Shown piece by piece: positions 5,576 to 32,181 of a stretch of DNA of 64,000 nt. A model generated the notes under the pieces. That model saw nothing but the letters and a program-made list of their open reading frames with translations, did not search any database and was not told where the DNA came from. Position numbers and translations under genes: made by a program. Each line of letters starts with the position of its first letter. Positions within the stretch are counted from its first letter, which is position 1. The stretch comes from Escherichia coli (GTDB lineage Bacteria; Pseudomonadota; Gammaproteobacteria; Enterobacterales; Enterobacteriaceae): assembly GCF_003334785.1 (NCBI RefSeq), contig NZ_QOWV01000008.1, one strand, 5' to 3'.

Positions 5576-6394
5576 ATGAAACTGACAACACATCATCTAC
5601 GGACAGGGGCCGCATTATTGCTGGCCGGAATTCTGCTGGCAGGTTGCGACCAGAGTAGCAGCGATGCAAAACACATTAAAGTTGGCGTTATAAATGGCGC
5701 AGAACAAGATGTCGCGGAAGTCGCTAAAAAGGTGGCAAAAGAGAAATATGGCCTCGATGTTGAACTGGTAGGATTTAGCGGTTCGTTGCTACCGAACGAT
5801 GCGACAAATCATGGCGAACTTGATGCGAATGTCTTCCAGCATCGACCCTTTCTTGAACAAGATAATCAGGCGCATGGTTATAAACTGGTAGCGGTGGGAA
5901 ATACGTTTGTCTTCCCTATGGCGGGTTATTCCAAAAAAATCAAAACCGTGGCGCAAATAAAAGAAGGCGCGACAGTGGCGATCCCCAACGACCCGACCAA
6001 CCTTGGTCGCGCACTTTTACTGTTGCAAAAAGAGAAGCTAATTACTCTGAAAGAGGGAAAAGGGTTATTACCTACCGCGCTGGATATAACCGATAATCCT
6101 CGTCATTTGCAGATTATGGAACTCGAGGGGGCGCAGCTCCCGCGCGTACTGGATGATCCCAAAGTTGATGTAGCGATTATCAGCACCACTTACATTCAGC
6201 AGACCGGGCTTTCTCCGGTGCACGACAGCGTATTTATTGAAGATAAGAATTCGCCGTATGTGAATATTTTGGTGGCACGGGAAGATAATAAGAATGCAGA
6301 AAACGTGAAGGAATTTCTGCAATCTTATCAATCACCCGAAGTCGCTAAAGCGGCAGAAACCATTTTTAACGGTGGCGCGGTGCCTGGCTGGTAA
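5576..6394 (+). CDS. nlpA: lipoprotein-28, methionine-binding NlpA family
   Basis: 272 aa, lipobox LLAGC near N-terminus, MetQ/NlpA-like sequence. Confidence 0.8.
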   Translation: MKLTTHHLRTGAALLLAGILLAGCDQSSSDAKHIKVGVINGAEQDVAEVAKKVAKEKYGLDVELVGFSGSLLPNDATNHGELDANVFQHRPFLEQDNQAHGYKLVAVGNTFVFPMAGYSKKIKTVAQIKEGATVAIPNDPTNLGRALLLLQKEKLITLKEGKGLLPTALDITDNPRHLQIMELEGAQLPRVLDDPKVDVAIISTTYIQQTGLSPVHDSVFIEDKNSPYVNILVAREDNKNAENVKEFLQSYQSPEVAKAAETIFNGGAVPGW

Positions 6395-6397
6395 TTC

Positions 6398-7321
6398 TCA
6401 CTTATGCCGCGCCGGACGATTTATTTTTCTGGCGCGGCGACGGGAATCCATTGAAATCAAAATCACCGATGACAGAATCAGCAGCGTTCCCAGCCAGTCC
6501 GGTAATGTGAACGTGATCCCCAGCAACAGCAAAGAGAGTAGCGCGCTACTTAATGGTTCTGCACAGCTCAAAATGCTGGCTTTTGGACCGCCAATTAATT
6601 GTGCTCCTTTCAGGTACAGACTAAATGTCAGGGACGTACCAATGACCACCAAATAAAAAAACGCCAGAATCAAACTGCCGTTAACGACAAAGTTTGTTCC
6701 TTGTCTGGCATAAAAAGGCAACAGAATCAGACCGCCAATCAGCATACTCCAGCCGACGACTGGTAACGTGCCATAGCGGGCAATTAGCGTTGAGGGATAG
6801 GTGGTATAGAATGCAGCAGCAAATGCCGAGGCAATGCCCCAGAACAACGCGGCAGGAGAGATCGATAATGACGTCGGATTACCGTGTGTCACCAATAAAA
6901 AAGTCCCGACCAGCGATGTCAAAATAGCGCAGAAAACCAGAATGCCCGGGCGCGATTTACGCACCAGTGAGAACCAGGCGACGATAATCGTCGGTGAGAG
7001 GAATTGCAGCACCGTTGCCGTGGCTGCGTTCGATTTTTCGATGGTTAGCAAAAAAGTGAGCTGTACAGTTAGCGCGCCAACCACGGAAAAAATCAGCAGG
7101 CTAATGGCATCTTTATGATTGTTAATAATAGAAAAGATTTTATCGCCATGAACAAATGACAGCGTCAGTAGAATCAAACCGGCGAATATCAAACGCGTCA
7201 TAGTCAAAAACTGCGACGACATCTGGCTTTGCTCCATGATGTATTGCGCGCAGACCCCTGAACTTCCCCACAACACGGCGGCAATCAGAACGTTCAGCAT
7301 CCCCTTTCTGGTGGAACCCAT
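6398..7321 (-). CDS. yicL: EamA/DMT family transporter
   Basis: 307 aa, ~10 TM segments, position between nlpA and setC. Confidence 0.7.
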
Positions 7322-7431
7322 TTTTCCCTCTGCATACTGTTTTGTCGTTTATGTATGCAGGCATGATAGCAAAAATGGCGAGGATGGCTCTGTTTGCGCC
7401 ACGCCGATTTTTCTTAGCCCAGACTGGTGAG

Positions 7432-8616
7432 CTAAATATCTTTAATAAACAGCAGGCAAATCATCGCAATACCCAACATCCCTATCGCCAGCCAGAACAA
7501 CGCATGGTAGCTCCAGATTTCAACCATAATTCCGTCAACAGAGCCGGCGATAATCCAGCCGACGCGTGAAGTATTTGCATATAACGTTGTCGCAGAGCCT
7601 ATTTTTTCAGGCATCAAGTCCTGAAAATAAAGCATGCCGATACCACAGAGAATACCAAGGAAGATGGCATTAAGAATTTGCAATTCCAGCTCAACCGCCG
7701 GAGTCGTCGCCATGAGTACGCTGGCGTAAAAACACATTCCACTCACGATAGCAATGAGCATTAATAGTCGCTTGCCAATACGTTTCATGTAATAGCCTGC
7801 GATTAACATCATCGGAATTTCCAGACCGGCAGCGATACCAATCATTTCTCCAGCCAGTTTATCGGTTAGATGCAGTTCATCAATAATAAATAGCGGCATA
7901 TTTATCATGTAGAGATTATTCGCCGCCCACATCATTGAACAGACCACAAAAAGTAGCCGCGTATCCCGCTTCCTGTGGGTGGAGGGTAAAATTTCTACGG
8001 GTTGGGTAACGACAGGAATATTTCTTTGTATTGATGGCAAAAACAACCAGACTATCAGTCCGCAAACAACAAATGCGATGGCAGCGGTGAGATACATCAC
8101 TTTAAAACTAAATCCCATTGCCAGTTCATAAGCGAGCGGTGGCCCGATAACCCAGGCAAGCGAGATCTGAGCACGTAAAAATGTACTGAACATGACCGTC
8201 TCACGGCCTGTTCTGTCGGCGTGTTCACGGGCGAGGGCGAACATTTGCGGGTTTGCGGTGGAAGCAAAACTACTCAGAAGTACGCCCGTTGAGAGGAGAA
8301 TGAAGTAGTTGCGATTCCACGCAAAAAGCGTGCAGGCCAGCACTCCAAATAAGCAACATAGCAGAATCAGTAATTTACGGTCGCCTTGTTTATCGGAGTG
8401 CCTTGCCAGAAATTGACTGACCAGAATTCCCATAATAGCGCTACCGGTGAAGAAAAAACCTACCATTATAGGACGGGCTTTCAGTTCATCTGCGAGGAAT
8501 ATACTTAGGGTAGGAGTCTGAAGAGCGCCCGCAATACCCGTCAGAAAGGCGACAAGTAAAAATGCCGCGGCAGTGAGATCAAGTATTTTTGATGGAGTGG
8601 TAGCCGTTTTTTGCAT
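7432..8616 (-). CDS. setC: MFS sugar efflux transporter SetC
   Basis: 394 aa, 12-TM MFS; neighbour of selC in E. coli. Confidence 0.8.
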   Translation of the reverse strand: MQKTATTPSKILDLTAAAFLLVAFLTGIAGALQTPTLSIFLADELKARPIMVGFFFTGSAIMGILVSQFLARHSDKQGDRKLLILLCCLFGVLACTLFAWNRNYFILLSTGVLLSSFASTANPQMFALAREHADRTGRETVMFSTFLRAQISLAWVIGPPLAYELAMGFSFKVMYLTAAIAFVVCGLIVWLFLPSIQRNIPVVTQPVEILPSTHRKRDTRLLFVVCSMMWAANNLYMINMPLFIIDELHLTDKLAGEMIGIAAGLEIPMMLIAGYYMKRIGKRLLMLIAIVSGMCFYASVLMATTPAVELELQILNAIFLGILCGIGMLYFQDLMPEKIGSATTLYANTSRVGWIIAGSVDGIMVEIWSYHALFWLAIGMLGIAMICLLFIKDI

Positions 8617-9248
8617 TCTTCTGAATCACCGGGCGAAAAAATATAACTGAGTTACAAATAAGTACCAGTCGAATGAGTATTGTATTAAGAATTTTTGAGT
8701 ATCGCTGATACAACCAGAAAGCAATGCTAGCGCAATATTATAGGGCCAGCAATTGAGATTATTAGTAAAAGCATGTTAAGAATTAATTACCGAATTTATA
8801 TATTAATTATAGTAAGGCAATGAGCTATTTTTGATAGTAAAAATAAAACAAGTTGATTTGATATATTAAATGAACAAATTAATCTTGATGGCAGTCTGAT
8901 TATTGGTGAAGTTTATAGTCAGTTTTTTTCGCCAGCGGTTAAAGAAATAGAATAGTCGTATAAAAAAGGGTGTTCTGGGGCGAGTAAAACAACATCTTCA
9001 CCTTAATGGCGATACAGTTGGCTGAGAGTCAGCAGGGGGGCAAATCACCTGCAAATAAACACGGCGCATACTGGCGTGAATATCGCGGATGCGTTCGAGG
9101 ACAGAAGAACCGACAGGCGGATTCTTCAGCCGCTCATCGTCCATCACAAAACCTTAGACCAGGTATTCCTGAAGCCGATTGAATATTGAGCAGTAGAAAA
9201 TATCTGGATTGACAGTATTACAAGGGGTTGGAGAACGTCAGGAGAGGC

Positions 9249-9273
9249 ATTTTGGCGGAAGATCACAGGAGTC
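9249..9273. repeat. attL core: duplicated 3' end of tRNA-Sec
   Basis: 25-nt attttggcggaagatcacaggagtc identical to 21074..21098; sequence diverges immediately on both sides. Confidence 0.85.
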
Positions 9274-9399
9274 AAAATTGACATATAACAATTTGATTCC
9301 AATCGTTTATATTTATCAGCTCTAATTCATTTATACACATCCTTATACACATAATATCTGTCGATTAATTTTTACACGTATCTTCACGCACGTTAACTC

Positions 9400-9700
9400 A
9401 GGAAAAAAATTTTTTTTCGAAAGAACTGTTCACACTGTTCACCTTTCTGTTTTCTCCTTTTATTTCAGTTTGATAGGTGGTGAATAATGGGTGAAGGGTG
9501 AACATTCGATTCTTCACCTCCGGCATTCTGCCGGTGTGACTTGTGCAGGGGATTAATCCTCCGCACTGAAATCACACAGGGAGAAAAAAGTTTTTTTGAT
9601 TTGATTGTTCATCTTTCGTTTTTCTCTTTTAATTTCAGTGTGATAACGGGTGAATATACGGTGAAGGGTGAACAGTGGATTGTTCACTTTCGGGGAATTC
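9400..9700. repeat. crr-like region: two ~120-bp direct repeats carrying TGTTCACC/GGTGAACA iterons
   Basis: Unit 1 about 9403..9525 and unit 2 about 9583..9700 share (a)8-9ttttttt...tgttca...tttctc...atttcagt.tgata..ggtgaa...ggtgaagggtgaaca; iteron motif matches the P4 alpha-binding repeats. Confidence 0.7.
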
Positions 9701-9705
9701 AGGGA

Positions 9706-9731
9706 TAAAAAAAGACCGGCAGATGCCGGTC
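9706..9731 (-). terminator. rho-independent terminator after alpha
   Basis: Minus-strand hairpin gaccggcatctgccggtc followed by TTTTTTTA, directly 3' of the alpha stop at 9739. Confidence 0.7.
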
Positions 9732-9738
9732 AGATGAG

Positions 9739-12072
9739 TCAGGCTGTTGCAGGGTCGTCACATTTCGGCAGCCAGTCGCCGTAGCTTTCCTCTTTCAGCG
9801 TCAGGTTGGTCTGTATCCCCTGTTTGGTATGGCGCTTCTCGTAATTCAGTCCGTATTCCTTCAGCATCACCGGCAGCCCCAGCCCGAACATTTTCAGACT
9901 GAGTACATTCCGGTAGCCGTTTGCCTCCATGTAGGCCAGATAGGCGTGATAGAGGTATTTACGGTAATTACGCGGGATGATACTGGCGTTCCCCATATAC
10001 ATGCCGCTGGTCTGCGGCAGGGTTTCCAGATAGCCGATAAAATCAAACGTCGGGTCGGCATCCCGTTTGATGTTCAGTGCCTCGTCTGAGTTCTGCTGGG
10101 ACTGAAGCAGTGACCGGGCGAGCATCGGGTCGCTGAACTTCTGCATCAGGTAACGCACGATGACCGCCAGCTCGCGGGTGATTTTGTCCTTAAGCTGCGG
10201 GTCGCGCTCCTGCGGGGCTATCTGTTCCGGGAAGTGAATAATCACCCGCCGGCGTGACACGCCGCCGCTGCGGTCGGTGAAGCGCATCGGGTTATTGTTC
10301 ACGGCCAGAATCACCGCCGGGATGTGCGTGGAGTACGCATCCCGGTATTTCGGGTCAACGGACACCGCATCGCCGCCGGTGATGGCCTTGAGTCCGGCAC
10401 CGTCGCCGCTCCATTTTTCCTGGTCCGGCAGGCGTATCAGTGAGAAGCCAGTTAACGCGGCACGTTCACGCGGGGATTCCAGCGTCTCGATGGTGGCCGA
10501 CGTGGCGTTATCCTCACCGGCCAGCAGGGTGGCTATTTCGGCCATGATACTTTTGCCGCTGCCGCCGGGACCGGTCACCTCCAGAAAGAGCTGCCAGTCG
10601 TAGCGGTTTGCCAGCACCATAAACAGTGCGGCCAGAATCACGTCGCGTTTTTCCGCACGGCCACCGGCGGCACGGTCAAGCCAGCGCCAGAATGCGGGGG
10701 CGTGGGTTTCCAGCGTTTCACCTTCCACCGGCGGGGTGAAATCCACATCGCACAGGGCGCGCATCCAGTGTGACGGACTGTGCGGGTGGAACGTGCCGTT
10801 CTGCGTGTCGAGCACGCCGTTACGAAAGCCAATCAGGCGGCGGGAGGGGGCTTCCTGCTGCGGAATAATCAGCTTCAGGGTGTCCACCACGGAGGCCACC
10901 TTCCCGGAGGAGAACGGCGCGCGCAGACGCTGAAACAGCCCGGCCACATCCCGGGCAAAGTCCTGTGGTGGCAGCACCTTCCAGACACCATTTTCATAGC
11001 GGGACAGAAGCTGGCCGTTGGCATCGACCGCGAGCGCCTCGCCGTAATGCTCATAGATACGCATGGCCTTTTCGCTGGTACTCATGGCGGAAAACTCCGC
11101 TTCGCTCATGGTGTCGAACGGGCTTTCAGCCGGTGGCCGGATGGCATCATAAATGGCCTTACGGGTGGTTTCCCCGCCGTACTGCGTGAAGGCATCATTC
11201 CAGTCACCGAAGACCGGCGGCAGGGCAACAACGCCCTCACACGCATCTGCGGCTGCGGCGGCTTTTTTCTGGCCGTCACCGCTGAGGTCACGGTCTGCGG
11301 CAAGGACAATCTGACAGGCCGGATGCTTCTGCCGGGCAAGGCTGGCCAGAGAAAGGAGGTTCACGGAAGAAAGCGCCACCATCACCGTTTCACCGGTCAG
11401 GTGATGTACGGTAAGTGCGGTCGCGTATCCCTCCGCTATCCACAGACGTTTTCCGGCCTGATTCTGTCCTTCAAGGGTGTGACAGGTGCCCCTGACCTGT
11501 CCGCCTTTCAGGGTGCGCTTACGGCCGTCAGCACTGATTAACTGAAGGTTAACCAGTTCGCCGCTGTCGTCATACAGTGGCACCACAAGGTCACCGGCGC
11601 GCCAGCTCACGCCACCGGCTCTGTGTGTGCCGGTCAGCATCCGGCATTCCCGGCCGGGAAAGCCCTTGCGGGTCAGGTAGGCGTTACCGGTTCCGGGACG
11701 GGTTTTCGCCATCAGGGTTTGTGCCAGTGCGGCGGCGTTCTTCCGGGCGGCTTCTGTTTCAGCACCGGCGGCGGCCGTCACTGCCGGGTCAGCCGGGGGC
11801 AGGCAGCCGGTCACGGCAGCCACCTTTGCGGCCGCGTCGGACGGGGAAACACCAAACACCTTTTCAACCAGTTTCAGGCCGTCACCGGCACCACACTGAT
11901 TGCAGTACCAGGTGCCGCGCCCCTCCCTGTCATCAAAACGGAAACGGTCACTTCCGCCACAGACCGGACAGGGCTGATGACGGTTTTTCAGCACCTGAAT
12001 CCCCAGCGACGGGAGAATACGCGGCCAGTGGCCGAGCGCATGGCTGACGGTGGCGGTTACGTTCATTTTCAT
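9739..12072 (-). CDS. P4 alpha-type primase/helicase
   Basis: 777 aa, the size of P4 alpha; N-terminal CPVCGG...CNQCG zinc-binding primase motif; Walker A GPGGSGKS in C-terminal half. Confidence 0.9.
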   Translation of the reverse strand: MKMNVTATVSHALGHWPRILPSLGIQVLKNRHQPCPVCGGSDRFRFDDREGRGTWYCNQCGAGDGLKLVEKVFGVSPSDAAAKVAAVTGCLPPADPAVTAAAGAETEAARKNAAALAQTLMAKTRPGTGNAYLTRKGFPGRECRMLTGTHRAGGVSWRAGDLVVPLYDDSGELVNLQLISADGRKRTLKGGQVRGTCHTLEGQNQAGKRLWIAEGYATALTVHHLTGETVMVALSSVNLLSLASLARQKHPACQIVLAADRDLSGDGQKKAAAAADACEGVVALPPVFGDWNDAFTQYGGETTRKAIYDAIRPPAESPFDTMSEAEFSAMSTSEKAMRIYEHYGEALAVDANGQLLSRYENGVWKVLPPQDFARDVAGLFQRLRAPFSSGKVASVVDTLKLIIPQQEAPSRRLIGFRNGVLDTQNGTFHPHSPSHWMRALCDVDFTPPVEGETLETHAPAFWRWLDRAAGGRAEKRDVILAALFMVLANRYDWQLFLEVTGPGGSGKSIMAEIATLLAGEDNATSATIETLESPRERAALTGFSLIRLPDQEKWSGDGAGLKAITGGDAVSVDPKYRDAYSTHIPAVILAVNNNPMRFTDRSGGVSRRRVIIHFPEQIAPQERDPQLKDKITRELAVIVRYLMQKFSDPMLARSLLQSQQNSDEALNIKRDADPTFDFIGYLETLPQTSGMYMGNASIIPRNYRKYLYHAYLAYMEANGYRNVLSLKMFGLGLPVMLKEYGLNYEKRHTKQGIQTNLTLKEESYGDWLPKCDDPATA

Positions 12073-12086
12073 GGTGTTGTTCTCCT

Positions 12087-12407
12087 TCAGTGCAGTACCG
12101 GCGCTTTTATGTGACGGGCACAGAGTTCATCCATCACAACCAGCCCGAGAAAGGACAGCGACGGCGCGGCCTTCAGGGGGCCGGATTCCATTAAATCTTC
12201 CAGCAGGGCACAGGCTATCTGACGCCCTTTTTCCTCACCGTGCTGGCGCAGATAAAAGCCTTCCAGCTCAGCGGCGATGGCCGCCTCCAGTGACTCAAGG
12301 GTGAGATGCGGGTAGCGGTGCTGACGTTCGCACACGGTCAGCCAGGCACAGGCGACAGCGCGACGGTAAAGGGCAGCGCGTAAGACGGGCGGTAAGGGGG
12401 TTTTCAT
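12087..12407 (-). CDS. hypothetical protein, P4-like satellite backbone
   Basis: 106-aa ORF immediately upstream of alpha, same strand. Confidence 0.5.
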
Positions 12408-12542
12408 TTGTTTTCCTCCCTGTGACAGATGACTGCATTCCGTGCCGGTTGCATTAACTGATAAGGCATATCTGCGTCTCCTGAAGACGTGCGTATCCCT
12501 GCGCGAATACGCACATTTAATTTTTCGGGTGTCGTTTTTTAA

Positions 12543-12998
12543 TTACAGATAATTGCGGTAACTGTTATCCGGGGTGATTTCCGGGTCAGGCTCCGTGCGG
12601 GGAATTTCCCGCCATTCCCGCGCCACCGGTGCCGCCCGGCTGACCGGAACAGGGTCCTGCGGGTAAATATCCAGATATTTCTCCCGCCATTTCTGTAATT
12701 CCGGGTCTCCGGCCATTTCTTTCAGTACCGCATGCCGGTTTACGGGGCTGCGTTTAAACAGGTCAGGACGGTCACAGGTAAATTCCCGCAGAAAACGCCC
12801 CAGCGGGATGTCTGTGGTGCGCCCGTCGGCGATGATACGCACAAGGATACTGAATTTACGGCGGTACGGGTTCCAGACAATTTCCGGGCAGCGGTACGGC
12901 ATTTCCCACGGAATACCGTCTTCCAGAATGCCGACCACGGCCACATCGGGAAAACCGGCAGAACGGTAAATCTCACCGGGCTGGGGAAAATCAAACAT
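12543..12998 (-). CDS. hypothetical protein, P4-like satellite backbone
   Basis: 151-aa ORF, same strand as alpha, in the P4 left operon position. Confidence 0.5.
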   Translation of the reverse strand: MFDFPQPGEIYRSAGFPDVAVVGILEDGIPWEMPYRCPEIVWNPYRRKFSILVRIIADGRTTDIPLGRFLREFTCDRPDLFKRSPVNRHAVLKEMAGDPELQKWREKYLDIYPQDPVPVSRAAPVAREWREIPRTEPDPEITPDNSYRNYL

Positions 12999-13857
12999 GC
13001 GTCCTGTCTCCCCGGTCTTTCTGCTGGGCGAGAAAATCGCGGCACAGGCCTTTGGCTTTCAGCTCATTCAGCACAAAATCAATATCTTCATTCAGGTAAC
13101 TGAAAATATGCGGAATGTAGAGCTGATGCAGGCCGGAGAGTTCACGGTGAATCAAATCACCCCCAACAAACTGGGATACGGCGCTGGCGCGGTTGAGCTT
13201 ATGGTAAGCCTCAATGCTGAGGTGTTCACGGGCGTCATGACGCGCTGAGACGGTCTGAGGGGCTTTTTTATTACGCACGGGACACCTCCACCACCGGCAG
13301 ACGGGCAGCAAGGGAGAGCACATAGTCACGGACAAGGGAACGGCGGGCGCTGCGTTCATCACCGGCGACGGTGCGAAGCATACAGATACGGGGATGACGG
13401 TCTGTGCGACGGACAGCCGCAAACACAAAGACAAATTCAGGGTGTGAGGGGGTAAGGGTTGTAGCCATGATGGCAGCCTCCTGTGAATAGCAAATAACGC
13501 TATCGCCGGAGTTCTCACGCTCGATGGCGATAGCCCAGACGGGGGTGAGAATACCGGCTTCACAGGATACCGGCCAGCCCGGAGGCTGCCCCGCCTGAGC
13601 TACCATTGACTCAGAGGCATAACATGCGATTGCGAACAGGATCATACCTGCACGGCAAACCACACGCCACACCATAATCTGGTGCTCTGTGGCGTTGATT
13701 GCGACACAAAAAAAGACGCATGGCGCGTCATATGTCGCCTGTGAATTGCTCGGGTTCTCACGCCCGGCTGCCGATTTTGCGGCAGCGGAAAAACTATATC
13801 CGCAAATGCCGGAAAAAGGCAAGCCAGAAAAAGGGAGTTTTTGCAGAGCGGGCATCA
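12999..13857 (-). other. P4-like immunity/early region with unresolved small ORFs
   Basis: Overlapping ORFs in several frames (12991..13563, 13271..13906, 12997..13248); only C-terminal parts look protein-like; position corresponds to P4 kil/cI-RNA/eps. Confidence 0.3.
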
Positions 13858-14124
13858 TCATGCGTCGTACCCCCGTTTGCGTCCGGCAATGCGTCCGGCC
13901 ATCCATGCGGTGACTTCAGAGTGCAGCCAGGCCACATTTTTACCGCCAAGACTCACCTGCGGCGGAAATTCCCCCTTACGGATGAGTTCGTAGATGGTCG
14001 AGCGTGACAGGCCGCACAGGTGCATCACTTCCGGAAGACGTAAAAAACGCTCCTGTGTGATGTCCGGCAGCGGCATCAGTGGCGTCACAGGGGCGGGAGA
14101 CGGGGAAGAAAAAACAGCTTGCAT
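13858..14124 (-). CDS. AlpA/Vis-family DNA-binding regulator/excisionase
   Basis: 88-aa ORF with [48 protein letters not shown], typical AlpA-type HTH; true start may be the internal Met (MPLPDITQ). Confidence 0.8.
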
Positions 14125-14403
14125 CGGGCTACCTCGTTAATGTCCATACAGCACCGGATAAGTCCGTCCGGCTTCAGGTAGCGCTTTATTTTGTGAATAT
14201 TTTCAGCAGACGCAACAGGGGGGATTTGTTCCGGCAGCCTTACAATGCTTGTGTATTTTTTGTTCATCTCCACTTAAAGTCATTTAAAGCCACTTAAAGC
14301 AATTCGTAATTTTTATAGTGAAATACAAATCGTTTTTTCTTATTCATTCCCGGCGAATTAATAAAAACAAACAGTAATAAACAGCACAAAAAGCCCATCA
14401 ACG

Positions 14404-14508
14404 GGTGAACAGTGGTGAACAGACGGTGAACAGTCATTACTGCGATTGTTCACCCTTTAACTTACTGTATTACTTATCTTTTTTCTTATGGTGAACAGAG
14501 GTGAACAG
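14404..14508. repeat. ori-like iteron cluster
   Basis: Five direct GGTGAACAG copies (14404, 14414, 14425, 14490, 14500) plus one inverted TGTTCACC (14447) between vis and sid. Confidence 0.7.
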
Positions 14509-14586
14509 TAAAATATAAAAAAACAAACAGTAAGCCGGTTTTTCCTACGACCTTTTCCTGGCTTGCCGGTGTGAGGATGAGTCTCC

Positions 14587-14604
14587 TGTGTCAGGGCTGG
14601 CACA
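14587..14604 (+). promoter_or_regulatory. TGT-N12-ACA activator site of a P2/P4-type late promoter upstream of sid
   Basis: tgtgtcagggctggcaca lies ~75-90 bp upstream of the sid ATG; Ogr/Delta-activated late promoters carry TGT-N12-ACA near -55. Confidence 0.5.
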
Positions 14605-14676
14605 TCTGCAATGCGTCGTGTTGTTGTCCGGTGTACGTCACAATTTTCTTAACCTGAAGTGACGAGGAGCCGGAAA

Positions 14677-15411
14677 ATGTCTGACAACACCATCCCTGAA
14701 TATCTGCAACCCGCACTGGCACAACTGGAAAAGGCCAGAGCCGCCCACCTTGAGAACGCCCGACTGATGGATGAGACCGTCACGGCCATTGAACGGGCAG
14801 AGCAGGAAAAAAATGCGCTGGCGCAGGCCGACGGAAATGACGCTGATGACTGGCGCACAGCCTTTCGTGCAGCCGGTGGTGTCCTGAGCGACGAGCTGAA
14901 ACAGCGCCACATTGAGCGCGTGGCACGCCGGGAGCTGGTACAGGAATATGACAATCTGGCCGTGGTGCTGAATTTTGAACGTGAACGCCTGAAAGGGGCG
15001 TGTGACAGCACGGCTACCGCCTACCGGAAGGCACATCATCACCTTCTGAGTCTGTATGCAGAGCATGAGCTGGAACACGCCCTGAATGAAACCTGTGAGG
15101 CGCTTGTCCGGGCAATGCATCTGAGCATTCTGGTACAGGAAAATCCGATCGCCAACACCACCGGCCATCAGGGCTACGTCGCACCCGATAAGGCTGTCAT
15201 GCAGCAGGTGAAATCATCGCTGGAACAGAAAATTAAACAGATGCAAATCAGCCTCAGCGGCGAGCCGGTTCTCCGGCTGACCGGACTGTCAGCGGCAACA
15301 CTTCCGCACATGGATTATGAGGTGGCAGGCACACCGGCACAGCGCAAGGTGTGGCAGGACAAAATAGACCAGCAGGGAGCAGAGCTTAAGGCCAGAGGAC
15401 TGCTGTCATGA
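14677..15411 (+). CDS. sid: Sid-like capsid size-determination protein
   Basis: 244 aa from ATG 14677 preceded by GAGGAG; alanine-rich coiled-coil protein; first gene of a sid-delta-psu operon. Confidence 0.75.
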   Translation: MSDNTIPEYLQPALAQLEKARAAHLENARLMDETVTAIERAEQEKNALAQADGNDADDWRTAFRAAGGVLSDELKQRHIERVARRELVQEYDNLAVVLNFERERLKGACDSTATAYRKAHHHLLSLYAEHELEHALNETCEALVRAMHLSILVQENPIANTTGHQGYVAPDKAVMQQVKSSLEQKIKQMQISLSGEPVLRLTGLSAATLPHMDYEVAGTPAQRKVWQDKIDQQGAELKARGLLS

Positions 15412-15908
15412 TTTACTGCCCGTCGTGTGGACATGTTGCTCACACCCGCCGCGCACATTTTATGGACGATGGCACCAAGATAATGATTGCACAGTGCCGG
15501 AATATTTATTGCTCTGCGACATTTGAAGCGAGTGAAAGCTTTTTCTCTGACAGTAAAGATTCAGGAATGGAATACATTTCAGGCAAACAGAGATACCGCG
15601 ATTCACTGACGTCAGCCTCCGGTAGCATGAAGCGCCCGAAAAGAATGCTTGTTACCGGATATTGTTGTCGGAGATGTAAAGGCCTTGCACTGTCAAGAAC
15701 ATCGCGGCGTCTGTCTCAGGAAGTCACCGAGCGTTTTTATGTGTGCACGGATCCGGGCTGTGGTCTGGTGTTTAAAACGCTTCAGACCATCAACCGCTTC
15801 ATTGTCCGCCCGGTCACGCCGGACGAACTGGCAGAAAGCCTGCATGAAAAACAGGAACTGCCGCCAGTACGCTTAAAAACACAATCATATTCGCTGCGTC
15901 TGGAATGA
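15408..15908 (+). CDS. delta: Delta, duplicated Ogr-type zinc-finger late activator
   Basis: 166 aa with two Cys4 motifs (CPSCGH...CRNIYC and CRRCKG...CTDPGCG); start overlaps sid stop. Confidence 0.8.
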   Translation: MIYCPSCGHVAHTRRAHFMDDGTKIMIAQCRNIYCSATFEASESFFSDSKDSGMEYISGKQRYRDSLTSASGSMKRPKRMLVTGYCCRRCKGLALSRTSRRLSQEVTERFYVCTDPGCGLVFKTLQTINRFIVRPVTPDELAESLHEKQELPPVRLKTQSYSLRLE

Positions 15909-15981
15909 GGGCTGCCGGTTAACACCGGCCGTCGCCGCACACCGTATTTTTATTCTTCAGCATGATGAGAAAGAGATAACG

Positions 15982-16554
15982 ATGGAAAGCACAGCCTTAC
16001 AGCAGGCCTTTGACACCTGTCAGAATAACAAAGCAGCATGGCTGCAACGCAAAAATGAGCTGGCTGCGGCCGAACAGGAATATCTGCGGCTTCTGTCAGG
16101 AGAAGGCAGAAACGTCAGTCGCCTGGACGAATTACGCAATATTATCGAAGTCAGAAAATGGCAGGTGAATCAGGCCGCCGGTCGTTATATTCGTTCGCAT
16201 GAAGCCGTTCAGCACATCAGCATCCGCGACCGGCTGAATGATTTTATGCAGCAGCACGGCACAGCACTGGCGGCGGCACTGGCACCGGAGCTGATGGGCT
16301 ACAGTGAGCTGACGGCCATTGCCCGAAACTGTGCCATACAGCGTGCCACAGATGCCCTGCGTGAAGCCCTTCTGTCCTGGCTTGCGAAGGGTGAAAAAAT
16401 TAATTATTCCGCACAGGATAGCGACATTTTAACGGCCATTGGATTCAGACCTGACGCGGCTTCGGTGGATGACAGCCGTGAAAAATTCACCCCTGCGCAG
16501 AACATGATTTTTTCGCGTAAAAGTGCGCAACTGGCATCACGTCAGTCTGTGTAA
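15982..16554 (+). CDS. psu: Psu polarity-suppression protein
   Basis: 190 aa, MESTALQQAFDTCQNNKAAWLQRKNELAAAEQEY..., recalled as P4 Psu. Confidence 0.8.
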   Translation: MESTALQQAFDTCQNNKAAWLQRKNELAAAEQEYLRLLSGEGRNVSRLDELRNIIEVRKWQVNQAAGRYIRSHEAVQHISIRDRLNDFMQQHGTALAAALAPELMGYSELTAIARNCAIQRATDALREALLSWLAKGEKINYSAQDSDILTAIGFRPDAASVDDSREKFTPAQNMIFSRKSAQLASRQSV

Positions 16555-16718
16555 AATTCCCCGAAAATCCGCCCGTTTTTACTGAAAAAAGCCATGCATC
16601 GATAAGGTGCATGGCTTTGCATGCGTTTTCCTGCCTCATTTTCTGCAGATCGCGCCACGCCCGGCGTGGCCTGAGCGTGTCAGCGCAACTGCATTAAAAC
16701 CATCCCACAAAGCGGGCG

Positions 16719-16737
16719 GGCGAGGCGGGGAAAGCAC
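16719..16737. other. cos site (P2/P4-type 19-nt cohesive end)
   Basis: Exact ggcgaggcggggaaagcac, ~165 bp downstream of psu as in P4. Confidence 0.8.
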
Positions 16738-16979
16738 TGCGCGCTTACTTAGATGCGTGAATTTATTTATATCACTGAAGTATATCCCTAAGCTCATTTC
16801 TCAAAGGGCCTATGGTTGCACAAGGTTGTACCATGGCATTCAAAACTTTTTAAACCAAGAATGACAATTTCATTATTAGGCCGGAATAGTTACTAATTTT
16901 AGTATAGGTTGCGATTGTTTAACGCATTTTTTATTATGATGCAGATTTTATTATTACTAATGGGGTGCAAAAAACACGT

Positions 16980-18269
16980 ATGAAAAAAAATGTTGGTAAC
17001 CGCAATAAAAATTCTGATGTGCTTATTCTTAAAGGTATGTTGAACAATTTAAAAGATGGTTTAAATAATTTTGAATTATTGCTTAAATTGCAGTTTAAAA
17101 TATTGGTGTGCGTGATGAGATGTGAGCGGAAAATTAAGTTTCTTAAAAAGAATAATGCTCATTTAAGGTCGGTGTTAAAAAAATCAAGACTTCCAAAAGA
17201 AAAATCTCTGGCAGTAAAAGAAAAAATTAAATACAATTCTGAAGTAATTACTGCTGAAAAATTCAAGATATATACGTATAAAATGTTTGGCGATGCTGTT
17301 GCATTTTTATACATCGATAAATATACAATTAAACAGTTATACTACAATGTACATAATTACAATGTTAAAGAAACGTCGGGGGATTTGAGCGGTAAGTCTG
17401 GATTGCGAGAGGAATGGGAATGCGTAAAACTTGCATGTGATAATAAAGTTCCAGCTCTGTTGCATGATATTACAATGAGTATAAGGCATGGAGATGTATC
17501 ACTTTTAGGTAAAGATGAGCCATTTATTATTGAGATGAAATCAAGCTCAAATACAAATAAGAGAGTTGAGCGGCAAAAATCTAACCTTGAAAAATTAGGA
17601 AGTTTCATAGCAAAAGACGAAGCTGAAAATTTTCGAGGGATTCCATTGTTAATCAGGAAAAATTTGTTAACTGAAGAGGAATCATATTCTCAGGTTTTAA
17701 ATGAGTGTCTTAATGATTGTCGCAGCAAAGGAATGGCTTTGGTTGAAGCTGAAAAAGGATTTTATATCTGCGCAGTTAGAGAAGGGAATATGGCTTCTAT
17801 GCTAGAAAATATAGATTTTGATGAAAAAAAAGAAGTTTTTCCTGTATTTCTCAATCAATATAAAAATAATGGGGAGTGGCTACCATTAACACCATTTACA
17901 CTATTAATTAACGATCCTTACGATCTCCATGATTTTATCGAAGGGGAATTAACAATAGCTTGTTTTTTAATGCTCGATGAATACAAAAAAATTGCTATAG
18001 AACTAGGCTATGAATTAGTTTTTGTTTCTAATGATGAATATAGTATCTTGTTAAAAAGAATTGGTGAAGATATTATATTTGGTGTTTCCTGGCAAATGTT
18101 GTTAAGAGTTCCATTAGAGATGATGTCCATGTCATGGTTGATAAAAGAAAGTATTAATATATATAGTAACTCCCTAGAAAATAGCACCCATAATGATGAA
18201 TTAAATCAGGGGCAGGGAAATACTAAAAATTCATTATTCGAAAAATACAAGAATTTATTTTCTTACTAA
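16980..18269 (+). CDS. hypothetical cargo protein A, possible PD-(D/E)xK nuclease
   Basis: ORF 16965..18269 (GTG) or ATG 16980; strongly AT-rich, Lys/Asn-rich; motif LHDITMSIRHGDVSLLGKDEPFIIEMK; no homologue recognised. Confidence 0.6.
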   Translation: MKKNVGNRNKNSDVLILKGMLNNLKDGLNNFELLLKLQFKILVCVMRCERKIKFLKKNNAHLRSVLKKSRLPKEKSLAVKEKIKYNSEVITAEKFKIYTYKMFGDAVAFLYIDKYTIKQLYYNVHNYNVKETSGDLSGKSGLREEWECVKLACDNKVPALLHDITMSIRHGDVSLLGKDEPFIIEMKSSSNTNKRVERQKSNLEKLGSFIAKDEAENFRGIPLLIRKNLLTEEESYSQVLNECLNDCRSKGMALVEAEKGFYICAVREGNMASMLENIDFDEKKEVFPVFLNQYKNNGEWLPLTPFTLLINDPYDLHDFIEGELTIACFLMLDEYKKIAIELGYELVFVSNDEYSILLKRIGEDIIFGVSWQMLLRVPLEMMSMSWLIKESINIYSNSLENSTHNDELNQGQGNTKNSLFEKYKNLFSY

Positions 18270-18301
18270 TTAAGCATTGTAATTATATTTGATTTTTTCT
18301 A

Positions 18302-18335
18302 CAGGCTTGGACGGAATCATATAGCTCCAAGCCTG
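18302..18335. terminator. bidirectional hairpin between the convergent cargo genes
   Basis: caggcttgga (18302..18311) pairs with tccaagcctg (18326..18335); flanked by T-rich sequence. Confidence 0.5.
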
Positions 18336-18370
18336 TTGTGTCGGTATCAAAAAGAAAGTGATATTATTGT

Positions 18371-19744
18371 TTATCTAATATATTTTGTTACTTCCATATT
18401 ATCTTCATCGTCAAAAGAGTACTCAACCATCATACGACTATTTTTACCTGACTTAATATCTTGAAGCCAAGCTGAGGCAACCCTAGGGTCTAAATGCTGT
18501 TTTCTACTCAGCTCATTATTTTTTAGCCTATCAAGCCTTATTGCTCTTTGAAGAGTTTTATCGATGTAGTCTTCCAAATCAATGGACAACCTCCTTTTTG
18601 GATATAAATATTGGTATTCATCACACAATAGTACTCCTGGTAATTTAATTTCGCGTAGGTCGAAAGAATACCAACTATAGTTTTTAGACTCATTAGCTAA
18701 TTCCGAAACTAGATGAGCCCCATTTTGTTGTAAGAGAGATATTTTGTGATCGATGCTAATGTCAGATATTTCTCTTAAAGACTCAAAATGCATGTTTTCG
18801 TAGATAGTATTTAATAAAATACTCTCCATGTAAGAGTAAAAATCAGTACCATCGATGATAATATTAGTTTCATTGTAGACTGCAAGAGACATAAGATATA
18901 TGAAGAAAACTGCGGGAGTACTATTACCTCTGTTTATATCAAGTCTAAGGGAGTTGACATAATCAGGCGGAGAGTTTGAGAAAATTTCTCTTATTAACCA
19001 GTCTGGAATAGTGGTTCTTGTTAGAATGTCAGCGTTCAAACTTGAACGACATAAAAAAATACACATCTTTAATTTTAATTTTATTGAAAATGATGGGAAT
19101 AAATGATCGATGAAAGATAAAATACATGTATACTCTGCTAAGTCTGTTTGTTGCAACTTTTCTTTTATTTCATTTTCAAGCATTTTTAATTTAAAAAAAT
19201 CATTCCTTTTTTCTAATATTTCCCAATGAAATAATTGCTCCTGAGCGTACGCATGCCCCTCTAAAATAGCTAGCATGCTTAAAGGAATGTTTAGGATTTC
19301 TTGATAATTATTAACATACCCAAAGAAATGGACTCTGATATACACACCCATATCGTCATCATATTGTAATGATGCTTTAATATTTTTATAATTTAATTTA
19401 TTAGTGCTGTTGTTTTTGAAGTGATAATGTAAAGTAATTTCAGTATCATCAACTAATAAATTATCAAAAGCCTCCTTTGTTTCATATTTAAAATAGTTAT
19501 ATAGCCGACATGAATAATTTAACCCCCAGTGAGTTGTAGAACAATCAAGTAAATGGATTGTTTCATGGAGATATGTTTTATAAAATTCAATTTCGCTATC
19601 ATCAAAATCATATATGCTTTTACTGTCTATGATATTTTGTGCTTGCGGTAAACTTATATTTAATTCATCGTTTGAAATCTCAATTAAATGTGATGAAAAA
19701 TCATAAGAACCCAATGTTTTGCTGTTAAATATACATCCGCTCAT
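18371..19744 (-). CDS. hypothetical cargo protein B, HExxH motif (possible zinc metallopeptidase)
   Basis: 457 aa, AT-rich; N-terminal YLHETIHLLDCSTTH; start ATG overlaps the integrase stop (ATGA at 19741..19744). Confidence 0.6.
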   Translation of the reverse strand: MSGCIFNSKTLGSYDFSSHLIEISNDELNISLPQAQNIIDSKSIYDFDDSEIEFYKTYLHETIHLLDCSTTHWGLNYSCRLYNYFKYETKEAFDNLLVDDTEITLHYHFKNNSTNKLNYKNIKASLQYDDDMGVYIRVHFFGYVNNYQEILNIPLSMLAILEGHAYAQEQLFHWEILEKRNDFFKLKMLENEIKEKLQQTDLAEYTCILSFIDHLFPSFSIKLKLKMCIFLCRSSLNADILTRTTIPDWLIREIFSNSPPDYVNSLRLDINRGNSTPAVFFIYLMSLAVYNETNIIIDGTDFYSYMESILLNTIYENMHFESLREISDISIDHKISLLQQNGAHLVSELANESKNYSWYSFDLREIKLPGVLLCDEYQYLYPKRRLSIDLEDYIDKTLQRAIRLDRLKNNELSRKQHLDPRVASAWLQDIKSGKNSRMMVEYSFDDEDNMEVTKYIR

Positions 19745-20916
19745 AGCAAATCCCCTAAAAGATAATCAGAGTACCATTGAATCATCGTTTTCCTTTGAGA
19801 AAAATATTGTGCGTGATTATAGGTTCCTCGGATATTGTTCTTATCAACATGTGCTAATTGCATTTCAATCCAGGTACTATCAAATCCCTGTTCATGTAGG
19901 ATTGTTGACATTGTATGTCTAAAACCGTGACCTGTAGCACGTCCTTTGTAACCAAGTAACTCAATCACTTGTGAAACACTTTCTTTTGAAATTGGTTTGC
20001 TACGATTGTTCCTGCCAATAAAAATATAGGGATAATGGCCGGTGATAGGCTTTAGCTGTTTAAAGAGGTCTACCACCTGAGTAGACAAAGGTACAATATG
20101 TGGTCTGCGCATTTTCATACGTTCCGCTGGTATCTCCCATATACCTTTTTCGAGGTCTACTTCTTCCCACGTAGCAAAGCGCATCTCCTGCGTTCTTACA
20201 CCAGTCAGCATGACTATCTTCGTAGCATTTTTGGTGATGATGCTACCGGTATAAGCTTCGAGATCCCGAATAAAATGAGGCAATTCTTCGGCAGATAGAA
20301 ATGGATGATGTTTTTGCTTAGGAACGGCCAGAGCGATGGCTAAATCAGGCGCAGGATTGTATTCAGCGCGGCCAGTTATGATTGCGTAGCGATAAACCTC
20401 ACCGCACCTCTGACGTACCTTACGTGTTTTCTCTAGTGCTCCACGCTTCTCTATTCGTCGCAACACTTCAAGAAGTTCTAAGGGTTTGATTTCACTAATA
20501 GGACGTTTACCAATGAACGGGAAAACATCTTGCTCAAATGTTTTAATAATTTCTTCGCGGTAGGCAAGTGTCCAGCGATCGGCTTTATTTGAGTGCCACT
20601 CACGACATATAGCCTCGAATGAGTTTTCTGTTGAGAGCTGCTGTGCCAGCTTTTGGGCTTTACGTTCTTCCACTGGGTCTATGCCGTTTGCAACCTGCTT
20701 CCGAGCTGTATCGCGTTTCTCACGTGCTTCAGCTAGGCTCACAAGGTCGTAGCTACCAAATGACATTAACCGCGCTTTTCCGGCAAAGCGGAAACGGAAA
20801 CGCCAGCCCTTCGAGCCATCGGGATTGATAAGCAATGACAGGCCCTGCCCGTCGTTCAATGTGTATGGCTTGTCTTGGGGCTTTGCTCGTTTGATTTGTA
20901 TATCTGTAAGTGCCAT
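19741..20916 (-). CDS. int: P4-family tyrosine integrase
   Basis: 391 aa; N-terminus MALTDIQIKRAKPQDKPYTLNDGQGLSLLINPDGSKGWRFRFRFAGK typical of P4-type integrases; C-terminal catalytic region with HGFRHT...Y; adjacent to the tRNA. Confidence 0.9.
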   Translation of the reverse strand: MALTDIQIKRAKPQDKPYTLNDGQGLSLLINPDGSKGWRFRFRFAGKARLMSFGSYDLVSLAEAREKRDTARKQVANGIDPVEERKAQKLAQQLSTENSFEAICREWHSNKADRWTLAYREEIIKTFEQDVFPFIGKRPISEIKPLELLEVLRRIEKRGALEKTRKVRQRCGEVYRYAIITGRAEYNPAPDLAIALAVPKQKHHPFLSAEELPHFIRDLEAYTGSIITKNATKIVMLTGVRTQEMRFATWEEVDLEKGIWEIPAERMKMRRPHIVPLSTQVVDLFKQLKPITGHYPYIFIGRNNRSKPISKESVSQVIELLGYKGRATGHGFRHTMSTILHEQGFDSTWIEMQLAHVDKNNIRGTYNHAQYFSQRKTMIQWYSDYLLGDLL

Positions 20917-21073
20917 GTGTATAAGCCAAAAATATGTATAAAAAATCTATACACATCACTATACATATTTTTCATGGATTCAGGGAGATCTTGTCGGACG
21001 GTTACGGATGAGTGATTTACTATATGTTTTGAAAATAAAGGATTTTTAGACTCTCTCGGATGGTGACGGAAGA

Positions 21074-21098
21074 ATTTTGGCGGAAGATCACAGGAGTC
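21074..21098. repeat. attR core overlapping the 3' end of selC
   Basis: Same 25-nt sequence as 9249..9273. Confidence 0.85.
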
Positions 21099-21172
21099 GA
21101 ACCTGCCCGGGACCGCTGGCGGCCCCAACTGGATTTGAAGTCCAGCCGCCTCACCGGAGACGACGATCTTCC
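21078..21172 (-). tRNA. selC: tRNA-Sec (selenocysteine, UCA anticodon)
   Basis: Reverse complement reads ggaagatcgtcgtctccggtgaggcggctggacttcaaatccagttggggccgccagcggtcccgggcaggttcgactcctgtgatcttccgcca, the 95-nt E. coli selC sequence. Confidence 0.95.
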
Positions 21173-29934: not shown

Positions 29935-30099
29935 CCGATGAAGCGGCGGTAGAAGTGCCGCCGCAACAAAGACAAATGCCTGATACGCTTCGCTTATCAA
30001 GCCTGCGTATTGATTCATAATTTATTGAATTTGTAGGGTGAATCGCATCCGGCAGGAAGGTAGGGTAACCTGAAATGGCGGTCTTCTCACTGCCGCCTT

Positions 30100-32181
30100 T
30101 TACGCATTCGAGTAACGTTCTGTCTCCGGCATCCAGCGTTCTATCAAGGCTTTTGCCTGTTGTGGGTAACGTTCGTGAATATGTCGCGCCAGGCGCTGAA
30201 CTTCCGGGATCATCGCCTGATCGCGCAGTAAATCCGCCACTTTAAATTCAGCATTACCCGTCTGACGCGTGCCTAACAATTCGCCAGGGCCGCGAATCTC
30301 CAGATCTTTTTGCGCAATCACAAAACCGTCGTTACTGTCGCGCAGCACTTGCAGGCGAATTTGCGCCGTTTTAGAAAGCGGCGTTTTGTAGAGCAGCACG
30401 CAGTGAGAAGCCACCGCGCCACGACCTACGCGCCCGCGCAGCTGGTGTAACTGCGCCAGACCCAGACGCTCAGGGTTTTCGATAATCATCAGGCTGGCGT
30501 TAGGCACATCAACACCGACTTCAATAACGGTAGTGGCAACCAGCAGATGTAGCTCACCTTGTTTAAACGACGCCATCACCGCCTGTTTCTCGGCTGGTTT
30601 CATCCGCCCGTGTACCAGGCCAACATTCAATTCTGGTAGCGCCAGTTTCAACTCTTCCCAGGTAGCTTCCGCCGCCTGCGCTTCCAGTAACTCTGACTCT
30701 TCAATCAACGTACAAACCCAGTACGCCTGACGACCTTCAGTTATGCAGGCGTGGCGCACGCGGTCAATGATGTCGGTACGGCGGGTATCAGGAATAGCGA
30801 CCGTAGTCACTGGCGTGCGGCCTGGCGGCAGCTCATCTATCACCGAGGTATCGAGATCGGCATACGCCGTCATTGCCAGCGTGCGGGGGATCGGCGTGGC
30901 GGTCATGATCAACTGATGCGGATGGAAGCCCTGCTGCTGGCCTTTCTCCCACAATGCCAGACGCTGATGCACGCCAAAACGATGCTGTTCGTCGATAATC
31001 ACCAGCGCCAGGCCGTTAAACTGCACCTGTTCCTGGAAGATGGCGTGTGTACCGACAATCATCTGCACCTGACCGCTGGCGATGGCTTCCTGCTGAGACA
31101 GTCGCGCTTTGCCTTTCTGCTTACCGGCGAGCCAGCCCACTTTGATACCGAGCGGTGCAAACCAGTTGCGGAAGTTATTGGCGTGCTGCTCGGCGAGTAA
31201 TTCGGTTGGTGCCATCAGTGCCACCTGTTTGCCGTGGGCAATCGCACGCAGCGCGGCGAGGGCGGCGACCAGCGTTTTACCGGAACCTACATCGCCCTGT
31301 ACCAGGCGCATCATCGGCACATCCAGCGCCATATCATGCTCGATCTCCGCCACTACGCGTGCCTGTGCGCCCGTTGGCTTGAACGGTAAGGCGGCGAGGA
31401 GTTTATTTTTCAGCGTGTCATTGGCGCTCAGCGGCTGGGCATGAAAACGCTGTGCTCCGGCACGTAAGGCTAACATGCTGAGGTTGTGCGCCAGCAGTTC
31501 TTCCAGAATCAGACGACGTTGCGCCGGATGCTGCCCGGTTTCCAGATCGCTAAGCTGTAGCGTCGGTGGCGGGCGGTGCAAAGTGCGCAACGCTTCCGGT
31601 AGCGTCATCATTCCTTGTGACAGTTCCGGCGGCAGGAGTTCTTCAATGGCGCAGGTGTCGAGCAGATCCAGCGCCTGGTCGGTTAATTTACGCAGCGTGG
31701 CCTGCTTTACGCCTTCCGTTGTTGGATAAACCGGCGTGAGCGTTTCCTGTAATTCTGGCGTGCTGAGATCGCCCTGCACGCGGTATTCCGGGTGGATCAT
31801 CTCCGCACCATATTTACCGCGCTTTGCTTCGCCATAAGCCAGTACACGGCGGCCCGTCGCCAGGCTATTTTTCATTGCCGCGCTGAAATTGAAAAAGCGC
31901 ATGGTGAGGATGCCGGAACCGTCGCTGATCTGGCAGGTCATCATCCGCCGACCGCCGAAGGAGATATTGCAGTTCAGCACTTCGCCTTCCACCGTGGCAT
32001 AAACGCCCGGCAGTAGTTCTCCGATGGGGTAGAGATGGGTGCGATCTTCGTAGCGCAGGGGAAGGTGTAAGAGTAAATCCTGCACGGTATGCAGGTTGAT
32101 TTTCGCCAGTTTGTTACTAAGCGCTGCGCCAACGCCCGTTAGGGAACTGAGCGGGACAGTATCTAACAGGCGGCCTTTCAT
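30100..32181 (-). CDS. recG: ATP-dependent DNA helicase RecG
   Basis: 693 aa from MKGRLLDTVPLSSL; helicase motifs GDVGSGKT, DEQHRFG. Confidence 0.9.
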   Translation of the reverse strand: MKGRLLDTVPLSSLTGVGAALSNKLAKINLHTVQDLLLHLPLRYEDRTHLYPIGELLPGVYATVEGEVLNCNISFGGRRMMTCQISDGSGILTMRFFNFSAAMKNSLATGRRVLAYGEAKRGKYGAEMIHPEYRVQGDLSTPELQETLTPVYPTTEGVKQATLRKLTDQALDLLDTCAIEELLPPELSQGMMTLPEALRTLHRPPPTLQLSDLETGQHPAQRRLILEELLAHNLSMLALRAGAQRFHAQPLSANDTLKNKLLAALPFKPTGAQARVVAEIEHDMALDVPMMRLVQGDVGSGKTLVAALAALRAIAHGKQVALMAPTELLAEQHANNFRNWFAPLGIKVGWLAGKQKGKARLSQQEAIASGQVQMIVGTHAIFQEQVQFNGLALVIIDEQHRFGVHQRLALWEKGQQQGFHPHQLIMTATPIPRTLAMTAYADLDTSVIDELPPGRTPVTTVAIPDTRRTDIIDRVRHACITEGRQAYWVCTLIEESELLEAQAAEATWEELKLALPELNVGLVHGRMKPAEKQAVMASFKQGELHLLVATTVIEVGVDVPNASLMIIENPERLGLAQLHQLRGRVGRGAVASHCVLLYKTPLSKTAQIRLQVLRDSNDGFVIAQKDLEIRGPGELLGTRQTGNAEFKVADLLRDQAMIPEVQRLARHIHERYPQQAKALIERWMPETERYSNA

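Follow-up and report, generated by a model that had tools for sequence, protein, structure and literature searches.

Two convergent cargo genes in the cos–int slot of an Escherichia coli P4-like satellite: separable candidates for anti-phage defence

Introduction

Do two unannotated genes that lie side by side in a known defence hotspot constitute one anti-phage system, or two? The question is raised by positions 16738–19744 of a 64,000-nucleotide stretch of the Escherichia coli contig NZ_QOWV01000008.1 (assembly GCF_003334785.1), hereafter the window, in which an 11.8-kb P4-like satellite is integrated at the tRNA-Sec gene (selC). Two genes, here termed A and B, occupy the interval between the cos site and the integrase gene (int), and the order of elements is psu, cos, A, B, int, selC. 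The reading preferred here, to which we assign a probability of about 0.5, is that A and B are two independent single-gene cargo modules, each most likely to act against phages on its own.

The slot between psu/cos and int in P4-like satellites is a published, experimentally validated defence hotspot, for which more than 300 cargo arrangements have been described, and 7 of 19 systems from it gave protection (Rousset et al., 2022; PMC9122126). In a 2026 follow-up on P4, six of eight randomly chosen unknown P4 loci protected against phages, and the names Crouga, Bandua, Aernus, Toga and Reve were introduced. The slot of P2-like phages between the replication gene gpA and the portal gene has also been described as an anti-phage hotspot (PMC9122126). 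According to a recent survey, P4 and P2 elements almost never share closely related defence genes (>85% identity).

An original prediction, made from the sequence of the window, had recognized the slot as the variable defence hotspot of a P4-like element, which agrees with the positions of psu, cos and int and with the published work (PMC9122126). It had also taken the cargo for an undescribed system. In this it was mistaken: the locus had been listed before as a candidate without annotation, and its discovery is not new. Table S1A of Rousset et al. (2022) contains the entry 'hypothetical + hypothetical, WP_001406847 + WP_000742539', and System #32 in Table S1B of the same study corresponds to this locus, with exactly the two proteins (the representative sequences given there start with the N-termini of A and B), the psu–int slot, 48 occurrences and no Pfam domain (PMC9122126). 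System #32 was catalogued only, without an analysis of domains, mechanism or separability (PMC9122126); it is absent from the tested sets in Tables S2A and S2B, the constructs synthesized for the 2026 follow-up do not include it, and the accession numbers of A and B occur in no indexed main text of the literature. What is new in the current study is the division of the locus into two modules, the catalytic signatures that hold across each family, a confident model of B, a link between B and the phage protein family phrog_228, and the distribution across P4, P2, integron and CRISPR-associated transposon contexts.

Gene layout and expression

Gene A (WP_000742539.1, 429 aa; 16980–18269, + strand) and gene B (WP_001406847.1, 457 aa, a mostly helical protein; 18371–19744, − strand) are convergent and separated by a 101-bp spacer. 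The list of open reading frames (ORFs) and the RefSeq annotation both bear out the two convergent genes that had been predicted between cos and int. For A, a GTG at 16965 is an alternative start (434 aa) to the ATG at 16980 (429 aa); RefSeq uses the 429-aa form. The GC content is 0.27–0.34 across positions 16750–19750, compared with 0.52–0.63 in the P4 backbone (9750–16750) and 0.40–0.47 in int, and the cargo is, as claimed, far more AT-rich than the backbone.

The start codon of B overlaps the stop codon of int (ATGA, 19741–19744) and is preceded by a Shine–Dalgarno sequence, AGGGGA; on these grounds B is predicted to be expressed together with int. The overlap is also present in L009, another satellite at selC. 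The tight linkage to int that had been proposed for the cargo therefore applies to B and not to A. The layout predicts that A is expressed from the cos side and B from the int transcript. A same-strand operon of A and B is not found, the genes being convergent with an inverted repeat between them and B being coupled to int instead. This repeat (11 bp, perfect; 18301–18336) is a possible weak terminator; the 101-nt spacer has a predicted minimum free energy of −22.6 kcal/mol (z = −1.8). A role for the spacer hairpin as a bidirectional intrinsic terminator was rejected, as a U-tract is absent on either strand and a terminator scan made no call.

Contexts of A and B

When every ORF of all the fetched loci was scanned with hidden Markov models (HMMs), the two families were found together in three places only: the window-type locus, L009 and a metagenomic viral contig (L026/L030). 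In about 17 of 20 independent contexts, either A or B, but not both, is present within ±6–8 kb. The convergent orientation, together with the fact that either family usually occurs in the absence of its counterpart, speaks for two single-gene modules that can be separated, and the single two-gene system of the original prediction was overstated. Comparison of the locus contexts also indicates that neither family specifically tracks P4 or P2 backbones.

The A family is present in the P4 hotspot in Escherichia and, at approximately 50% amino-acid identity, in the P2 gpA–portal hotspot in Citrobacter and Serratia. In the P2-like prophage of Citrobacter (L004), A is the sole gene between gpA and the portal gene. 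In that of Serratia fonticola (L002), the gpA–portal slot contains A and an unrelated 456-aa orphan (9771–11141). This neighbour was considered as a cryptic B and rejected, BLASTP revealing no similarity and the B HMM matching none of the ORFs of L002; the orphan was likewise unmatched in NCBIfam. In IMG/VR loci L015–L018 and L021, A was found and B was not, by tblastn and HMM searches; the sizes and order of the ORFs there resemble those of the P2 slot by layout only. More distant relatives of A adjoin integrases, transposases or an AAA_16 ATPase. On one such locus (L013, 1846–6738), a distant A homologue is divergent to genes for a 410-aa AAA_16/ATPase_2-like protein and a 1152-aa protein unmatched in Pfam, and the same trio recurs on L014.

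At least 24 contigs of Pluralibacter gergoviae carry an intact A (91% identity), for which the ratio of non-synonymous to synonymous substitution (dN/dS) is 0.25. It lies at the equivalent chromosomal site in a decayed P4 remnant (L033/L034, 5575–8715), which consists of a psu fragment, the intact A and then a deletion. The deletion has removed codons 1–393 of B and the C-terminus of int, so that the final 64 codons of B are now fused with the N-terminal portion of int. As it is seen in at least 24 contigs, the remnant appears to be fixed in the species.

Homologues of B without A are found in other settings. In the superintegron of Vibrio parahaemolyticus, B forms a cassette by itself, with attC-like repeats on either side; a published integron screen in Vibrio cholerae does not mention a metallopeptidase or HExxH. 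In Idiomarina a B homologue adjoins the Tn7-like transposition genes tnsA-tnsB-tnsC-tniQ, and in Photobacterium another lies just upstream of csy2-csy3-csy4, genes of a type I-F Cascade; these two contexts are contained in L029 (5965–12453) and L010 (8001–13356). This suggests that B homologues are cargo, or part of the neighbourhood, of CRISPR-associated transposons; the genome-wide scan for B contexts, made with a narrow alignment, yielded two loci only. At L024, a B homologue is directly downstream of an AIPR/Abi-alpha-like gene. At L027, a retron-type reverse transcriptase gene (1751–2911) precedes a co-oriented B homologue (3178–4629) by 267 bp; the best NCBIfam match of the reverse transcriptase is the retron St85 family (E 3e-53, which falls short of the curated cutoff). 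B-like proteins might act as retron-associated effectors in some lineages.

Conservation and selection

Both A and B can be regarded as real genes rather than AT-rich noise because they are under purifying selection (dN/dS 0.09–0.25). The individual dN/dS values are 0.12 for A (0.25 in Pluralibacter), 0.086 for B and 0.026 for int, with dS values of 1.2, 1.8 and 0.86, respectively. In L009 both genes are present in the same layout at 73–74% amino-acid identity to those of the window, compared with 96% identity for int.

The full cargo was found in 10 of 5426 complete E. coli genomes, and in all 10 it is intact and full-length at ≥99.6% identity. At least part of the 3.3-kb query was matched in 2244 of the 5426 genomes, and the partial matches listed (H11–H25) are confined to the flank from psu to cos, which makes up the first 165 nt of that query. 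This cargo is rare, and the content of the slot is exchanged among satellites that are otherwise alike. Among 5.8 billion proteins the A family forms 36 clusters at 90% identity; among 1.8 billion representatives the B family forms 188 at 50% identity, and almost all of these are 430–470 aa in length.

Protein A, a putative nuclease

Seven residues are invariant in an alignment of 34 A-family sequences, which extends down to 26% identity: E145, D172, E185, K187, R195, R198 and Q199. These include a D...(D/E)xK signature with an upstream Glu (E145, D172, E185-x-K187). The local motif, 'R-x-G-D-[IV]-x-L-L ... P-x-[LI]-I-E-[VIM]-K-S-S', is one that we take to resemble YraN/NERD-type members. An AF2 model built from the 34 sequences (predicted local distance difference test, pLDDT, 82.6; predicted template-modelling score, pTM, 0.84) comprises a helical hairpin (residues 13–111), a low-confidence linker, a predicted PD-(D/E)xK-like core (approximately 140–235) and a C-terminal alpha/beta region. 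The invariant residues are distributed over helix 142–154, strands 159–161, 173–175 and 182–184, helix 192–212 and strand 214–218, and the resulting order, alpha-beta-beta-beta-alpha-beta, is the canonical one for PD-(D/E)xK enzymes; local pLDDT is 64–79. As the invariant residues sit in the order and placement expected for such a core, it is reasonable to regard A as fairly likely to be a nuclease, rather than as a demonstrated member of the superfamily.

The prediction that the cargo proteins fit no family has held in the Pfam and PADLOC searches then proposed, and also in NCBIfam. A and all 34 aligned relatives gave no Pfam match. With PADLOC-DB v2.0.0, A and 10 relatives were unmatched except for noise (DndE, E 0.026, with one A relative); A itself was unmatched in NCBIfam r20, and a PDB sequence-profile search returned nothing for either full-length A or its nuclease core. 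A does belong to phrog_14906 (E 2e-135), which is of unknown function. When the A core was compared by hhalign with P4 cII and E. coli YraN, the motif was in register, at probabilities <1% that are not significant.

The gop-beta-cII genes of P4, validated as anti-phage, are like A and B next to cos in the same slot, but differ in gene number and architecture. The cII stretch 'RRADLAI...FEIKSD' falls in hhalign register with 'RHGDVSLL...IIEMKSS' of A at a probability of 0.4%, which is not significant; in a slightly longer form, 'RRADLAI...AFEIKSD...R..Q' of cII aligns with A residues 165–203. This hints that cII may also be PD-(D/E)xK-like, on an alignment that is not statistically significant. 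Shedu SduA and the NERD/Mrr-type effectors are single polypeptides that combine a PD-(D/E)xK-like core with extra non-catalytic regions and are found in mobile defence slots. A resembles them by functional analogy and not by membership, since A and its relatives match no PADLOC or Pfam model; in A, unlike in those proteins, the core is central, flanked by the helical hairpin and a further alpha/beta domain.

In the mechanism proposed, A is probably a Mg2+-dependent PD-(D/E)xK-type nuclease with E145, D172, E185 and K187 as catalytic residues. The N-terminal helical hairpin may be an oligomerization or regulatory arm, and the C-terminal domain may control oligomerization or activation. The likeliest action of A would be to cut nucleic acid of the phage (or the host) after infection has been sensed.

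Protein B, a putative HExxH hydrolase

In the B family, H60, E61, H64, D67, W73, G74, G133, E162 and Y205 are invariant amongst 59 sequences, down to 17% identity, and conservation peaks at residues 61–90 and 151–180. The AF2 model built from these 59 sequences is confident (pLDDT 91.5, pTM 0.91). H60-E61-x-x-H64 lies within helix 49–70, and the candidates for a third metal ligand, both invariant, are E162, which opens helix 157–179, and D67.

B and all 59 aligned relatives gave no match in Pfam; B and 10 relatives were unmatched in PADLOC-DB v2.0.0 and had no meaningful match in NCBIfam r20. A PDB sequence-profile search with full-length B returned nothing, and the confident B model has no PDB neighbour. 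The N-terminal region of about 160 residues (approximately 11–162, including HExxH) was matched by phrog_228 of PHROGs v4, which is labelled 'Arc-like repressor', in 10 of 10 diverse B-family members, with a best E value of 1e-23 (P0119); the B of the window itself reached only E 0.088. The match covers profile positions 98–251 (approximately) of 251, that is, the C-terminal half of the phage protein. As all 10 members match, the putative catalytic module is also present in phage proteins, fused to something else, and the phrog_228 label probably describes that other half. B lacks the other half and adds about 300 further residues. No match was found, even at E 10, when A, B, P0119 and the N-terminal domain of P0119 were compared by tblastn with 50,697 phage records, and the name 'phrog_228' had no mention in the literature searched.

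Lit is the classical protease-type abortive infection gene. The Lit protein of e14 ('cell death peptidase', Peptidase_U49) is, like B, a single-gene HExxH protein on a mobile element. B was considered as a relative of Lit and rejected, hhalign aligning only 11 columns around HExxH at a probability of 1.2%; in addition, Pfam U49 is unmatched by B, which is 160 aa longer.

B is probably a zinc-dependent HExxH hydrolase and most likely a protease, in which H60, H64 and E162 (or D67) would bind the metal and E61 would act as general base. The less conserved C-terminal half (residues 300–360 and beyond 420) would recognize a trigger or a target/substrate, and coupling to int may hold B at a low level.

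Interpretation and alternatives

We infer the anti-phage role of A and B from their location only: the slot has been validated (7 of 19 systems, six of eight loci), and members of both families are found again in other mobile slots rich in defence genes. The enzymatic activities, and an abortive-infection-like logic, are likewise proposed rather than observed. Several observations weigh against the reading of two independent defence modules. The nuclease-core model of A is of moderate confidence (pLDDT 64–79), and A is not significantly similar, in sequence or in fold, to any known member of the PD-(D/E)xK superfamily; no known peptidase family resembles B by fold or by profile. The nuclease-like and peptidase-like motifs noted in the original prediction are present and family-invariant (34 A and 59 B sequences), but neither enzyme assignment is statistically significant, and the Pfam and PDB-sequence HMM searches were empty. 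The A and B pair is kept in the same layout at about 74% identity in L009, and distant homologues of A (29%) and B (24%) are 5 kb apart on the contig IMGVR_UViG_3300014774_000065 (L026/L030). This last co-occurrence is unlikely to have arisen by chance because both families are so rare, and a facultative partnership therefore retains a minor but appreciable share of the probability. A and B would then be one cooperating two-component defence system, for example with B as a protease-like sensor, or a regulator, by which the nuclease A is permitted to act or kept in check, or with the two as toxin and controller, and solo copies would be variants with other partners. The adjacency and co-inheritance of the pair in E. 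coli (48 loci; Rousset et al., 2022, Table S1B), the identical layout in L009, dS values of similar order for A, B and int, the distant pair and the rarity of both families are consistent with this. However, the convergent genes form no operon, and there are strictly bounded slots in which one gene stands without the other, A in the P2 gpA–portal slot and B as a single integron cassette. In L026, where the homologues are on the same strand, six ORFs separate them, including integrase-like and RNase H-like genes. In Pluralibacter, A has stayed intact under purifying selection after the loss of B, and the great majority of independent contexts carry a single gene. From these comparisons A and B appear separable, each probably functional alone.

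It is improbable that the cargo is not anti-phage and instead serves the satellite, through helper exploitation, interference with P2, control of excision and integration via int, or as an addiction module. The translational coupling of B to int, kept in L009, could be expected of such a role, as could an int allele found, amongst the records sampled, only with the A and B cargo; the catalytic region of B is similar to phrog_228, a phage family whose label is that of a transcription regulator, and the defence databases gave no match. Yet B homologues occur without an integrase partner, as integron cassettes and beside a retron reverse transcriptase and AIPR Abi genes, A homologues occupy the P2 gpA–portal slot, itself a described anti-phage hotspot (PMC9122126), and neither family follows the P4 or P2 backbone. 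Least credible is that one or both genes are decaying passenger DNA without current function. Truncated copies do exist (a 301-aa Salmonella B fragment, P0015; a 167-aa A fragment, P0042; the Pluralibacter B deletion) and the composition is AT-rich and foreign, but this explanation appears largely refuted by the selection and conservation data, namely the intact, full-length copies of both genes in all 10 complete genomes (≥99.6% identity), the dN/dS values and the catalytic-looking residues that are invariant down to 17–26% identity.

A broader proposal joins these points and is put forward only tentatively, being rather unlikely to hold in full. B would found an undescribed HExxH fold class of stand-alone anti-phage sensor-effectors spread across satellites, integrons, CRISPR-associated transposons and retron/Abi islands and sharing the phrog_228 module; A would represent a new family of PD-(D/E)xK defence nucleases of the P4 and P2 hotspots; and the two could optionally team up, in which case their repeated occurrence together would be a sign of functional synergy, for example as a protease-gated nuclease.

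If either gene does protect, a new protein family would be added to the bacterial immune repertoire. A defensive role is to be expected for unknown genes of the P4 hotspot and would not startle a specialist. Of the two, B is the more interesting, with a confident model lacking a PDB neighbour, an invariant HExxH...E signature and a spread over four mobile 'gene banks', namely satellite hotspot, superintegron, CRISPR-associated transposon and defence island; it could turn out to represent an enzyme fold that is new to immunity. A is an example of a gene family found in both P4 and P2 hotspots, against the near-absence of close sharing (>85% identity) in the survey. Adjacency within a hotspot is not evidence of a system, and the comparison of contexts divides System #32 into two modules, which changes the constructs to be cloned.

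The host satellite

The satellite is bracketed by 33-nt att-like direct repeats that are 91% identical, at 9244–9276 on the left and at 21069–21101 on the right. The right repeat overlaps the 3' end of the tRNA-Sec gene (21078–21172, − strand; ARAGORN), the site of integration. The P4 backbone (9800–16718, + strand) encodes alpha primase, icd-like, delta, sid-like and psu genes, as judged by similarity to P4 and by the RefSeq annotation of an identical locus in E. coli A1 (L001). That annotation lists a primase-helicase, icd-like and delta-like genes, psu, two 'hypothetical' proteins and a tyrosine integrase. Window positions 9800–16718 are 98% identical to positions 4697–11624 of phage P4 (NC_001609), reaching the end of the linear P4 genome. 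The left framework gene of the hotspot, psu (15982–16554, + strand), is annotated in L001 as phage polarity suppression protein. Directly 3' of the last base aligned with the right end of P4 lies the 19-nt cos core, GGCGAGGCGGGGAAAGCAC (16719–16737), recognized by direct reading of the sequence; the string GGCGAGGCGGGGAAAGCAC is also present in the cloned P4 sequences of Table S2A of Rousset et al. (2022).

The tyrosine integrase gene (19741–20916, − strand), identified from its ORF and the annotation of L001, is a selC-specific allele linked to the A and B cargo. At ≥99% identity it was found only in the 10 cargo-bearing genomes; the best other integrase, amongst other records sampled down the ranking, is 88.9% identical, with similarity beginning 16–60 nt inside the 3' end of int.

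The left end of the satellite contains two 88-nt direct repeats (9436–9523 and 9606–9693), 81% identical and rich in TGTTCACC-like iterons, which we presume are probably P4 crr/ori-type repeats. Outside the satellite, RefSeq annotates an 867-bp 'hypothetical protein' gene (WP_000747329.1) at 25338–26204 of L001, between gltS and recG and overlapping the end of recG; if the two sequences are collinear, it corresponds to approximately 29937–30803 of the window.

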